In this document: in pieces, positions 23,890 through 30,021 of the stretch
Numbering within the stretch: position 1 is the stretch's first letter
How the letters are laid out: every line of letters starts with the position of its first letter
From: a virus
Direction: 5' to 3' (one strand)
DNA: 64,000 nucleotides
IMG/VR virus record: IMGVR_UViG_3300013112_000677
Location: 1-64,000 of that record
Position numbers and translations under genes: made by a program
The notes under the pieces: generated by a model
Database searches by the model: none
What the model was told of the DNA's origin: nothing
What the model saw: the letters and a program-made list of their open reading frames with translations, nothing else

Positions 23890-26800
23890 ATGACAACGCT
23901 GAACCCAGAGGGCTCGTTTGACGCCCTCAAAGACCGTGTCAGCGGTGCCATCGAGTCGACCTTCCCCTACGAGGGACGGGACCGCAGGCTGGAAGTAGAC
24001 CGAGTCTGGGTCGACGACAAGAAGAGCATCGACGACATCCGCTCACAGCAAGAGGCCAAGATGAGGGGCAGGTCCTGGACCGTGCCCGTCATGGCCGACG
24101 TCCGCCTCATCGACAAGGAGTCAGGCAAGGAGCTGGACTCCCGGGCCATCCGGGTGGCCAACCTCCCCAAGGTCACCCGCCGCTACTCCTACATCGTCGA
24201 CGGCAAGGAGCGGCAGGTCGACAACCAGTTCCGCCTGAAGTCGGGCGTGTACCACCGCACCACAGGCAAGGGTCAGCTGGTGTCGAAGTGGAACGCGGAG
24301 AAGGGCCTGGGCTTCGACCTGAAGTTCGACCCGGCCAACCGCCGCTACCTCATCAACTACGGCGACTCCAACATCCCCCTGTACCCCGTGCTCAAGGCGA
24401 TGGGGGTGGGCGACGATGAGATCGAGCGCGAGCTCGGCCGTCGGATGCTCACCGCAGGGAAGAAGGAGAAGCACGACGTCGCGATGCGCGCCTTCTACAA
24501 GGCGTCCACCGGGAAGCAGGCTGACAGCATCGAGGCTGCCGAGGAGCACATCGCCAAGACCCTGGCCGAGACCAAGCTCCGGCCCGACAGCACCGTGCTC
24601 ACCCTGGGCAAGAAGTTCGACCACGTGAGCTCCAAGGCGCTGCTGGCCTCGGCCGCGAAGCTCGCGCGCATCTCCCGCGGTGAGGAGGACGAGGACAACC
24701 GCGAGCACCTGTTCTTCAAGGACGCCCTCTCCACCGAGGACTTCATCGAGGAGCGGCTGCAGCGGGCGCAGCGGGACATCAAGGCGAAGCTGTCCAACAA
24801 CATCGACAAGAAGGGCAAGCGGGTCCGCGAGGTCATCTCCCCCGACCTGTTCGACAAGCCCATCCGCTCGTTCTTCACCTCCAGCCAGCTCGCTCAGATG
24901 CCCGAGCAGATCAATCCCCTGGAGTTCGTGTCCGGCCAGACCAAGACCACGGTCATGGGAGAGGGTGGGATCAAGACCACGCACACCCTGACCGACGAGG
25001 TCCGGCTCATCGACCCGACCCACCTGGGCTTCCTCGACCCCATCCAGACTCCCGAGGGAGACAAGACGGGCATCACCCTCCAGCTCCCGCTGGGCGCACT
25101 CAAGAAGGGCAAGAAGCTCTACATCCGCGCCTACAACACCAAGACCGGGAAGATGGAGAACGTCGACGCCCACAAGGCGCACAACAGCACGATGGCCTAC
25201 CCCGACCAGTTCTCCTGGAAGGGCGGGAAGCCAACCCCCGACGCCTCCGGCCGCGTGGCGGTCAGCGGCCCGGGCGGGGAGCTGAAGACGGTCGACTACA
25301 AGGACGTGGACTACGTCCTGCGCTCCCCCAAGGCCCTGTTCGGGATGTCCTCCAACCTCATCCCGTTCCTCCAGAACAACCAGGGTGTCCGCGCCATGAC
25401 GGCCTCGCGCCAGCAGGAGCAGGCCGTTCCCCTGGTCGACCGCGAGCAGCCCCAGGTGCAGGTGAAGACGGAGAGCGGACGCACCTTCGAGCAGACCCTC
25501 GGCAGGTTCAACGCGCACCACGCTCCGGTGGCGGGCAAGGTCATCGAGATCAAGCCCGACGCCGTCGTCATCCGTGGGAAGGACCGCAAGAAGCACGAGG
25601 TCCAGCTCTACGACCACTTCCCCCTCAACGAGGCGTCCAGCGTCCTGCACTCCAACCCCGTCGTGAAGGTGGGGGACGAGGTCAAGTCGGGGCAGCTGGT
25701 GGCCGACTCCAACTTCACCAAGGGCGGCACCCTCGCCCTGGGGAAGAACCTGCGCGTCGCGTACCTCCCGTACAAGGGGTACAACTTCGAGGACGGCATC
25801 GTGGTCTCGGAGACGGGGGCGCAGAAGCTCACGTCCCAGCACATGCACCGCAAGCACCTGGCCATCGGCAAGGACACGGTCCTGAAGCGGGACAAGTTCC
25901 GCGCCTACTCCACCCCGGACCGCGCGCCGGACTCCAAGCTCAAGAAGCTCGACGACGACGGGATCATCCGGGTCGGCGAGACGGTCACCGAGGGCGACAT
26001 CCTGGTGGCCTCCCTGAAGAAGCCGGCCCCCACCAGTGAGCGGCGCGCCCTCGAGCGCCTGCACAAGAGCCTGGTCAAGGACCTGGTCGAGCGGCCGCTC
26101 ACCTGGGACAACGACACCCGCGGCAAGGTGATCCGGGTGGTGAAGACCCCCAAGGGCGTCGACGTCCACGTCGCCACCGAGGAGCCCGCCCGCGTTGGGG
26201 ACAAGCTGGTCGGCCGCCACGGGAACAAGGGCGTCATCACCGCCATCATCCCCGACCACGAGATGCCGAGGCCCACGGAGAAGGGGTCCGCACAGCTCGA
26301 CGTCCTGCTCAACCCGGCGGGGATCCCCGGCCGCATCAACCTCGGGCAGGTCCTGGAGACCGCGGCGAGCAAGCTGTCCACGAAGCGCCGGCCCTACGTG
26401 GTCAACAACTTCGCCGGCGGGGAGAAGGACTACATCTCGGACCTGAAGAAGGAGCTGGCCGCAGCCGGGGTCAAGGACACCGAGCCCCTGGTCGACCCTC
26501 AGACTGGCGCCGAGCTGGGCGACACCCTGACGGGCGACCAGTACATGCTCAAGCTCAAGCACCAGGTCACCAAGAAGTCTGCGGCCAGGTCCGGGGGGAC
26601 AGGCTACGGCTACGACGTGAACCGCGTGCCCAAGGGCGGGGGTGCCCACGGTGCCCAGGCGATGGACGCGCTGGGCATGTACGCCATGCTCGCGCACGGA
26701 GCGAAGGCCAACATCCGGGAGATGGCCACCTACAAGACCCAGCGCAACGACGAGCTGTGGGACGCGCTGCAGTCGGGCGAGCCCCTCCCCCCGCCGACGA

Positions 26801-29800: not shown

Positions 29801-30021
29801 TGGCGTTCCGCCCCGTCCTGCGCGGGGTGAACCAGACGCCGCTGGACATGCAGACCGACTGGATGGCACGTATGCAATACCAGCGCCTGCAAGATACAGT
29901 GGTGGACGCAGCCCTGAAGAACTGGGGCAGTGACATTCACGGGATGCACCCAGTCCCGGGCATGGCCTACGGAGCCGAGTTCGGGAAGCCCCCGCTTGGG
30001 GTGACGAGCTTCAAGTACTGA
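23890..30021 (+). CDS. rpoBC: Single-chain fused beta-beta' multisubunit-type RNA polymerase (probable virion RNAP)
   Basis: beta motifs GYNFEDG, GDKLVGRHGNKG, LNPAGIPGRINLGQ, YMLKLKH; beta' motifs KPERGGLF, PVLPP, RDPVLH, NADFDGD (27982-28002), AQALGEPATQLSMKAFHHGG; junction near 26860. Confidence 0.97.
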   Translation: MTTLNPEGSFDALKDRVSGAIESTFPYEGRDRRLEVDRVWVDDKKSIDDIRSQQEAKMRGRSWTVPVMADVRLIDKESGKELDSRAIRVANLPKVTRRYSYIVDGKERQVDNQFRLKSGVYHRTTGKGQLVSKWNAEKGLGFDLKFDPANRRYLINYGDSNIPLYPVLKAMGVGDDEIERELGRRMLTAGKKEKHDVAMRAFYKASTGKQADSIEAAEEHIAKTLAETKLRPDSTVLTLGKKFDHVSSKALLASAAKLARISRGEEDEDNREHLFFKDALSTEDFIEERLQRAQRDIKAKLSNNIDKKGKRVREVISPDLFDKPIRSFFTSSQLAQMPEQINPLEFVSGQTKTTVMGEGGIKTTHTLTDEVRLIDPTHLGFLDPIQTPEGDKTGITLQLPLGALKKGKKLYIRAYNTKTGKMENVDAHKAHNSTMAYPDQFSWKGGKPTPDASGRVAVSGPGGELKTVDYKDVDYVLRSPKALFGMSSNLIPFLQNNQGVRAMTASRQQEQAVPLVDREQPQVQVKTESGRTFEQTLGRFNAHHAPVAGKVIEIKPDAVVIRGKDRKKHEVQLYDHFPLNEASSVLHSNPVVKVGDEVKSGQLVADSNFTKGGTLALGKNLRVAYLPYKGYNFEDGIVVSETGAQKLTSQHMHRKHLAIGKDTVLKRDKFRAYSTPDRAPDSKLKKLDDDGIIRVGETVTEGDILVASLKKPAPTSERRALERLHKSLVKDLVERPLTWDNDTRGKVIRVVKTPKGVDVHVATEEPARVGDKLVGRHGNKGVITAIIPDHEMPRPTEKGSAQLDVLLNPAGIPGRINLGQVLETAASKLSTKRRPYVVNNFAGGEKDYISDLKKELAAAGVKDTEPLVDPQTGAELGDTLTGDQYMLKLKHQVTKKSAARSGGTGYGYDVNRVPKGGGAHGAQAMDALGMYAMLAHGAKANIREMATYKTQRNDELWDALQSGEPLPPPTTSFAYDKFQGYMNVMGINPTKRGSVINLSPLTDAQVVQMSNGALPDAGLMFQGKDMKPERGGLFDPRITGGPDGTKWSHIELAESMPNPVFERAILTLTGLTNKKYQAIMAGKDELDGKSGPEAIREKLKDIDVDKRLRQLRRKMEKTDAPAALAKMRKESRYLEALQANEMTPSDAYLMSVVPVLPPSMRPVSVMDGGDLNTRDINGLYKYLAISNRQLKEFDPGLPEGEKRKLQAELYDDLRALTMTGKNINKQQYRGVMETMKGVPQPKDSFFQKNLISRKQDLSMRSIIIPEPAMGLDEVGIPYSLAKETYKPFIVRKLRTEQGFTPLEGQKEVEKDTELARRTLERVLDERPVLLKRDPVLHKFGIMAFQPKVVEGKAIRIHPLVTGGYNADFDGDAMSAYVPLTHEAVSEAHKMFPSRNLFSPTSGRLMYQPGHEAQLGLYRLTKWGKRTGHEFKSTKEAAKEAAELGLGMTDVITVKGKETTLGRLLIDRVLPKGERGNTKLLHTPSYLLDKGEARKLLTSLAEKHPNDFGDAVNQLKDLGNNYAYQSGFSVSLRDFTPQRNIRDRIVNAAHKEVAAIHKRRDISEEKRERLAAEAYQKATNELTRILKPKLAREKNNALELVSSGARGDWDQLRQIVVAPMLIKDAADRPIPIPITKSYAEGLDTASYFTTMQGARKTMIQKTKETAKPGALTKDIVNSAMNMLVIPGDAPDDAEDGIFLDTESREIIGRFLSKPAKLRTGETLPRNTELTPEVITRIRNAGTKKVSVRSPLRSAAAQGIYARDYGTLPGGGLPEPGTNIGVIAAQALGEPATQLSMKAFHHGGVASTKGKVTDSFTRVENLLQMPSTLPDSATLAGRGGRISKIEKDRDVGGLNVWVEDKRHYVPEHLVHSGLHLRKGLAVKRGDRLSAGPINPHELLPLTNINTVRNYLTDEVHTAYKDSGVQRRNAEAVIRAITNLGVVRDPAGDPTLLKGDLVSVSQMEARNRKSKKPVAFRPVLRGVNQTPLDMQTDWMARMQYQRLQDTVVDAALKNWGSDIHGMHPVPGMAYGAEFGKPPLGVTSFKY
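29538..29550. repeat. Dispersed palindrome copy 3, CGACAGACTGTCG
   Basis: Inside the RNAP gene; uses the rare AGA codon. Confidence 0.9.

Follow-up and report, generated by a model that had tools for sequence, protein, structure and literature searches.

The gene at positions 23,890 to 30,021 of the window analyzed here (64,000 nucleotides, the first 64 kb of the 73,940-bp virus record IMGVR_UViG_3300013112_000677 of IMG/VR, with 66% G+C) encodes a bacterial-type catalytic core of RNA polymerase in the form of a single β-β' chain that consists of 2043 amino acids and lacks cysteine altogether. Taking together the features of the polymerase family, the genomic context and the data on cultured relatives, the best-supported interpretation appears to be that this enzyme travels in the virion and enters the host cell by injection. 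It seems fairly likely that the injected entity would be a holoenzyme, comprised of the single-chain core and a sigma-like factor, that enters through a contractile tail and starts early transcription. The genes of the record were called by third-position G+C, and alignment with the products of Escherichia coli rpoB and rpoC (L003) served as the reference for the residues of the polymerase:

23890..30021, plus strand: single-chain β-β' RNA polymerase, 2043 amino acids, 0 cysteines (open reading frame, Pfam)
23890..26844, plus strand: β module, amino acids 1-985 (Pfam and E. coli alignment)
26842..26862, plus strand: β/β' junction, MGINPTK (E. coli alignment)
27019..27024, plus strand: site of the 32-amino-acid deletion of the β' zinc-binding domain, between amino acids 1044 and 1045 (E. 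coli alignment)
27982..28002, plus strand: catalytic motif NADFDGD, amino acids 1365-1371, intact (E. coli alignment)
28951..29175, plus strand: former second zinc site (hereafter Zn2), with A1688, S1752, Y1759 and D1762 at the positions of E. coli C814, C888, C895 and C898

Within the single chain, Pfam domains Rpb2 3 and 6 are found in the first half (E-value of 1e-56 for Rpb2_6) and Rpb1 domains 1-5 in the second half, and the nearest solved chains are bacterial β' subunits (E-value about 1e-116). The β module retains the active-site lysines of the GRHGNKG motif, with GRHGNKGV aligned to its E. coli counterpart, and lacks the segments corresponding to E. coli β residues 938-1049 and 1123-1176, along with several shorter stretches between residues 197 and 419. 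In the alignment, ...MGINPTK is the counterpart of the end of E. coli β (...LGINIELEDE); RGSVINLSPLT of β' comes next, with essentially no linker. In β', a deletion of 32 amino acids between GGPDG and TKWSH removes the zinc-binding domain (C70, C72, C85 and C88 in E. coli). The bridge helix and the trigger loop align with those of E. coli and the SI3 insertion is missing; counterparts of the flap-tip helix in β and of the clamp helices in β' are both present. Thus, the small size of the enzyme is due mostly to the lack of the insertions specific to the E. coli lineage and of the zinc-binding domain. An earlier reading of the window made without database searches (hereafter, the sequence-only reading) had described a 2043-amino-acid, essentially linkerless fusion with a deleted zinc-binding domain, a substituted second zinc site and an intact NADFDGD motif, and the alignment bears out this description in full.

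Loss of the zinc-binding domain is a property of the family: its CxC...CxxC motif was not found in any of the 41 full-length family representatives, and the domain also is deleted in the homologous enzymes of the cultured Salmonella phage Arash (gp206 and gp216) and Vibrio phage D69 (VPHD69_0261 and VPHD69_0264), which show 30-34% identity to the window enzyme. In these two phages, as in the window, β follows the portal gene and continues directly into β' (here its N-terminal portion), and the fused chain similarly is depleted of cysteine (1 and 2 residues, respectively, in about 1525 amino acids). Unlike in the window, β' is split after the catalytic region, with a second gene encoding 606 and 609 amino acids, and the four Zn2 cysteines are retained.

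The absence of cysteine noted in the sequence-only reading was confirmed computationally (0 of 2043). The other called proteins of the record contain 223 cysteines in 19,027 amino acids (1.17%), so about 24 would be expected in the polymerase, and the probability of finding none is about 4e-11; in the other cytoplasmic enzymes of the phage, cysteine accounts for 0.8-4% of the residues. The sequence-only reading called for a cysteine count across homologs, and these constitute a very large family of metagenomic origin. A word-indexed search identified 664 proteins with E<=1e-10, of which the 120 listed are approximately 2040 to 2930 amino acids long and come from contigs of up to ~200 kb; when the representatives at 50% identity were searched exhaustively, the best 150 matches all had E<1e-180 and 34-49% identity, save for one 93%-identical fragment. 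Shorter matches among the representatives, considered as possible unfused close homologs, appear to be contig-end fragments and are uninformative in this respect. In 87 of the 91 intein-free homologs, cysteine occurs at exactly four alignment columns, those of the Zn2 ligands, with 12 stray cysteines elsewhere, and this pattern persists in representatives as distant as 34% identity.

Many of the homologs are interrupted by an intein, or by two, the insertion sites of which recur, and the residue following the intein (+1) is nearly always serine or threonine in the 33 intein-bearing homologs. The inserts in these 33 proteins contain 365 cysteines in 17,746 residues (2.06%), compared to 0.21% in the exteins, which have four or five cysteines each. 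Because the inteins are cysteine-rich and the exteins encoded in the same genes are cysteine-poor, codon or composition bias is ruled out, and selection for cysteine loss falls on the mature polymerase.

A clade of wholly cysteine-free enzymes consists of the window protein, L005 (93% identical), P0002/L007 (65%) and L004, the polymerase of the complete relative G001 (67%). The A/S/Y/D substitutions at Zn2 are identical in the window protein, P0002, L005 and L007; the pattern search missed the site in L004, which also contains no cysteine. Outside of this clade, P0183, which is no closer to the window clade than other family members, lacks cysteine and has A/S/S/A at Zn2, and partial sites, with aspartate in place of cysteine, are present in P0196 and P0225. 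Given the position of P0183 and its different substitutions, Zn2 was lost at least twice, and judging from the sequences, the zinc-free state appears to be a derived, additional step that was taken in the window clade and, independently, in P0183. Zinc loss is not required for packaging, because most members of the family, including the enzyme detected in Arash virions, keep the Zn2 cysteines; the sequence-only reading tied zinc loss to injection too closely.

The genomic context places the polymerase gene in the late/structural module, apart from the replication genes, which are located on the opposite strand:

20555..22546, plus strand: portal protein, encoded upstream of the polymerase; its homologs include Arash gp204 (annotated as portal) and the product of the gene adjacent to the polymerase in D69
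213 to 16768, minus strand: replication block, encoding family A DNA polymerase, DnaB-like helicase, uracil-DNA glycosylase (UDG), superfamily 2 (SF2) helicase, RecA-like protein and HU

The portal and polymerase genes are on the same strand in the window, and the portal-then-polymerase order is conserved in G001, in the second complete relative used here (G002, 178 kb, with terminal repeats), in Arash and in D69. The gene thus does lie in a head module next to the portal, as the sequence-only reading had it in placing the gene among virion genes, whereas its direct neighbors have no recognizable function.

Data on the virion come from Arash, where mass spectrometry of purified virions assigned the highest spectral count (3516) to gp206, 1210 spectra to gp216, and 467 spectra, with 100% coverage, to the sigma-like protein gp10 (PMC10585845). 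A parallel for the cysteine pattern is found in phage N4, in which the virion RNA polymerase gp50, as stated in the sequence-only reading, indeed is cysteine-free (0 of 3500 amino acids), and so are the likewise injected gp51 and gp52 (644 and 150 amino acids), compared to 1.5-2.2% cysteine in the non-virion RNAPII. Suppression of cysteine is conserved across the ejection operon of Schitoviridae and has been discussed in connection with the passage of these proteins through the periplasm (PMC11445570). Synteny, the Arash proteome, cysteine suppression of the N4 kind and the intein control, all of them indirect, make delivery with the virion the best-supported reading of the enzyme.

Several observations weigh against this interpretation. 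The Arash preparation yielded 116 of the 272 proteins, ribonucleotide reductases among them, and some may have been carried over from the lysate, as the authors themselves point out (PMC10585845), and these data pertain to a split homolog with 34% identity to the window enzyme. The virion polymerase of phiKZ contains 16 cysteines (0.61%), compared to 33 (1.16%) in the non-virion set; packaging therefore does not force cysteine loss, and the cysteine signature, which the sequence-only reading took as diagnostic of an injected virion polymerase, is suggestive rather than universal. The polymerase shows no evident N-terminal extension of the capsid-targeting or propeptide kind, the sigma-like gene is absent from the record, and a scan for sigma70-type promoters around the polymerase gene was empty, with no promoter for the enzyme identified. 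Finally, Pfam and PHROG searches with the products of the flanking genes (504, 300, 354, 155, 373, 661, 301 and 324 amino acids) gave no matches.

The polymerase might accordingly be made only after infection, similarly to T7 RNA polymerase or the non-virion enzyme of phiKZ, and serve middle and late transcription, with cysteine lost for another reason, such as oxidative or thiol-directed host responses. The sole polymerase of the complete relatives must act after infection in any case, the long list of Arash virion proteins may include contaminants, and phiKZ demonstrates that cysteine content and packaging are only loosely coupled. We nevertheless consider this scenario unlikely: the gene sits beside the portal in the head module rather than among the opposite-strand replication genes, cysteine suppression this deep has been documented for ejected proteins, and the other cytoplasmic enzymes of the phage show no such depletion. 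Rhizobium phage TM30 offers a pertinent comparison in that its separate β' is encoded among replication genes and has a normal cysteine content, with 16 cysteines that include both zinc clusters.

A different selective cause, which overlaps with virion delivery, is that the enzyme is packaged and avoids cysteine owing to long storage in an oxidizing extracellular particle, rather than to unfolded transit. This would fit the lack of cysteine in other head-region proteins of the window and G001, as well as the retention of the four-cysteine zinc site in most family members, which would sit uneasily with the need to unfold and then recapture zinc. The portal protein, however, contains 6 cysteines and the major head protein contains 2, each conserved in G001, so location in the particle alone is insufficient to remove cysteine. 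Furthermore, as can be inferred from established phage structure, a folded enzyme of ~230 kDa could not pass through the tail tube, and Zn2 was lost more than once in the family. On balance, storage as the sole cause seems doubtful, with perhaps somewhat more to recommend it than exclusively post-infection synthesis.

The record contains no recognizable sigma or alpha gene in its entire 73,940 bp, in agreement with the sequence-only reading, which had found none in the window and concluded that the enzyme probably is independent of both. Such a self-sufficient polypeptide, working without sigma or alpha from promoters of its own, such as CATAAG, would be compatible with the failure to find either gene in the 74-kb record and with the absence of alpha from all complete relatives. 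The lack of a sigma gene in this record is uninformative, however, because the record is only ~40% complete (CheckV) and is colinear with roughly the 100-172 kb region of G001 (202 kb, rated complete), where the sigma-like gene lies outside the covered region, ~53 kb from the polymerase gene. G001, the closest complete relative, with a cysteine-free polymerase 67% identical to that of the window, thus encodes a sigma-like protein. In Arash, G001 and G002, this protein consists of 229-263 amino acids, scores above the Pfam cut-off for Sigma70_r3 and shows weak matches to region 2 and to a C-terminal helix-turn-helix; none of the three copies contains cysteine. Among the homologs of the sigma-like protein, 53 of 60 are cysteine-free, with 9 cysteines in 15,225 residues overall; Arash and D69 additionally encode a second sigma-like protein with ordinary cysteine content. 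The window enzyme itself keeps the counterparts of the β' clamp helices and the β flap-tip helix, the elements that bind sigma in bacterial polymerases. As for CATAAG, this hexamer was examined as a candidate promoter and rejected: it occurs just four times in 74 kb, always on the minus strand, three times in intergenic regions, and the two intergenic sites that were read closely overlap ribosome-binding sites that serve genes on that strand. A self-sufficient enzyme therefore seems quite improbable, and the claim of sigma independence finds no support, as the complete relatives carry a conserved, cysteine-free sigma70-like gene, the product of which is detected in Arash virions.

The alpha part of that claim fares better. 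A profile search that did match control genomes detected no alpha gene in the four complete relatives, which fits independence of a phage alpha; the host alpha may be used. Each of the four complete relatives has one copy of the polymerase, and no second polymerase was found in these genomes; a search for T7-type polymerases also was negative but was silent in the control genomes too and accordingly carries low weight. It appears reasonably probable that the phage has no RNA polymerase other than this one, and that it possesses a contractile tail and a genome of about 180-200 kb. Around the polymerase gene, terminator-like sites are fewer than expected from shuffled sequences.

Under the virion-delivery interpretation, which we rate as somewhat favored in its entirety, the polymerase would be made late in infection, loaded into the head and delivered to the host together with the DNA. 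The delivered molecules would transcribe the first phage genes with the help of the co-traveling small sigma70-like factor, and newly made copies would perform the remaining transcription, given that no second polymerase is encoded. Removal of cysteine would be an adaptation to extracellular storage followed by passage, probably in the unfolded state, through the tail and the cell envelope and by refolding inside the host, and the fusion might hold the two halves of the enzyme together without the alpha scaffold.

The family described here resembles several known systems in part. The mReC lineage consists of uncultivated tailed phages, often with genomes of 100-300 kb, that encode deep-branching β and β' subunits still recognized by bacterial profile models (Weinheimer and Aylward 2020, PMC7481178). 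The mReC tables give separate β and β' genes, and fusion, cysteine, zinc and virions are not mentioned (PMC7481178); comparison with the window relies on contig names and gene lengths, and one mReC contig shares its source metagenome with G002. N4 gp50, like the window enzyme, is cysteine-free, and is injected with the DNA to transcribe early genes. In contrast to the window enzyme, gp50 is an unrelated, single-subunit T7-like polymerase from a short-tailed phage of ~70 kb, so the likeness is one of lifestyle, not ancestry. The polymerases of phiKZ and AR9 are, like the window enzyme, relatives of cellular β and β' without alpha, and their virion set is packaged in the head and injected; unlike the window enzyme, they consist of four or five polypeptides, are accompanied by a second, non-virion set and, in phiKZ, contain the 16 cysteines. 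These polymerases, which are reported to function without sigma (PMC7824862), do not show up in the lists of sequence matches to the window enzyme.

With regard to the fusion as such, natural β-β' fusions in Helicobacter and Wolbachia and engineered fusions in E. coli show that a head-to-tail chain is functional, in accord with the proximity of the termini. These bacterial and engineered fusions keep both zinc sites, ordinary cysteine content and the alpha, omega and sigma partners.

We found no description in the literature of a fused, cysteine-free phage β-β' enzyme or of zinc loss in this family. Cellular-type RNA polymerases are regarded as having, almost without exception, zinc sites and an alpha-like platform for assembly. 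The family analyzed here, which spans hundreds of metagenomic members, dispenses with the alpha gene and with one zinc site throughout, and has lost the other zinc site on at least two occasions; as a consequence of these losses, it provides a minimal core of natural origin, the expression of which as one protein should be feasible. The most far-reaching version of the proposal, which we put forward tentatively and with more doubt than confidence, is that a zinc-free and cysteine-free two-barrel polymerase would be injected unfolded through a contractile tail, refold without alpha and serve, with a co-injected cysteine-free sigma, as the sole transcriptase of the phage. If true, the lineage of cellular polymerases would thereby gain its first member devoid of zinc, and the core with its sigma would make up a minimal holoenzyme, found in nature, of just two polypeptides. 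Suppression of cysteine in the polymerase and the sigma-like partner, as opposed to the cysteine-rich inteins, represents a marker readable from sequence alone that may predict phage proteins delivered to the host, and would extend delivery-linked cysteine suppression, so far documented for N4-like phages, to a multisubunit lineage. The cultured members, Arash and D69, could make the features of this polymerase family directly testable.

The remaining genes of the plus strand follow in the order portal, polymerase, several genes without assigned function, polyvalent protein, large terminase, prohead protease and major head protein:

36783..42587, plus strand: polyvalent protein, 1934 amino acids, 4 cysteines, with InPase (PF18823) and LigD 3'-phosphoesterase domains
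45025-48036, plus strand: large terminase with an intein that includes a LAGLIDADG endonuclease (Pfam Intein_splicing, LAGLIDADG_3)
51478..53199, plus strand: probable prohead protease; in D69, the polymerase genes are followed, ~4 kb downstream, by the gene for its homolog
57098..58222, plus strand: major head protein

The polyvalent protein is a candidate for co-delivered cargo; a pyrophosphatase delivered alongside the polymerase would be functionally sensible. For the 504-, 373- and 661-amino-acid proteins encoded next to the polymerase, a search of cultured phages gave no match, and an Atlas search with the 661-amino-acid protein produced no usable hit. Downstream of the polymerase and beyond the window, there is a gene for a protein with a tail-sheath domain (L011, positions 1034-5569, that is, 65034-69569 of the record); this protein consists of 1511 amino acids, unusually long for a sheath, and contains the domain only at its C-terminus.

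Several proteins of the head region contain no or almost no cysteine (50848-51474, 54188-56062, 56077-56445, 60419-62587, and 6333-7178 of L011), and one of these, of 722 amino acids, combines 0 cysteines with 38 methionines. Their orthologs in G001 likewise are cysteine-free or nearly so, and the cysteine fractions of 33 ortholog pairs between the window and G001 are correlated (rho 0.90). This conserved set may consist of delivered or internal proteins.

The minus-strand replication block also encodes a Toprim-domain protein, probably the primase, and a Cas4-like exonuclease (PHROG 1706 and 1990; 2693-3499). Between the portal and polymerase genes, the minus strand contains two cysteine-rich open reading frames of 134 amino acids each (22592-23502), with 7 and 9 cysteines; one or both of these have counterparts with ~40% identity in L004 and L007. 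The gap of 87 nucleotides that precedes the polymerase start contains 55% G+C, the joint lowest value of the intergenic gaps listed, and includes a G+C-rich hairpin, CCCCTTGCAGGGG, at 23851-23863.

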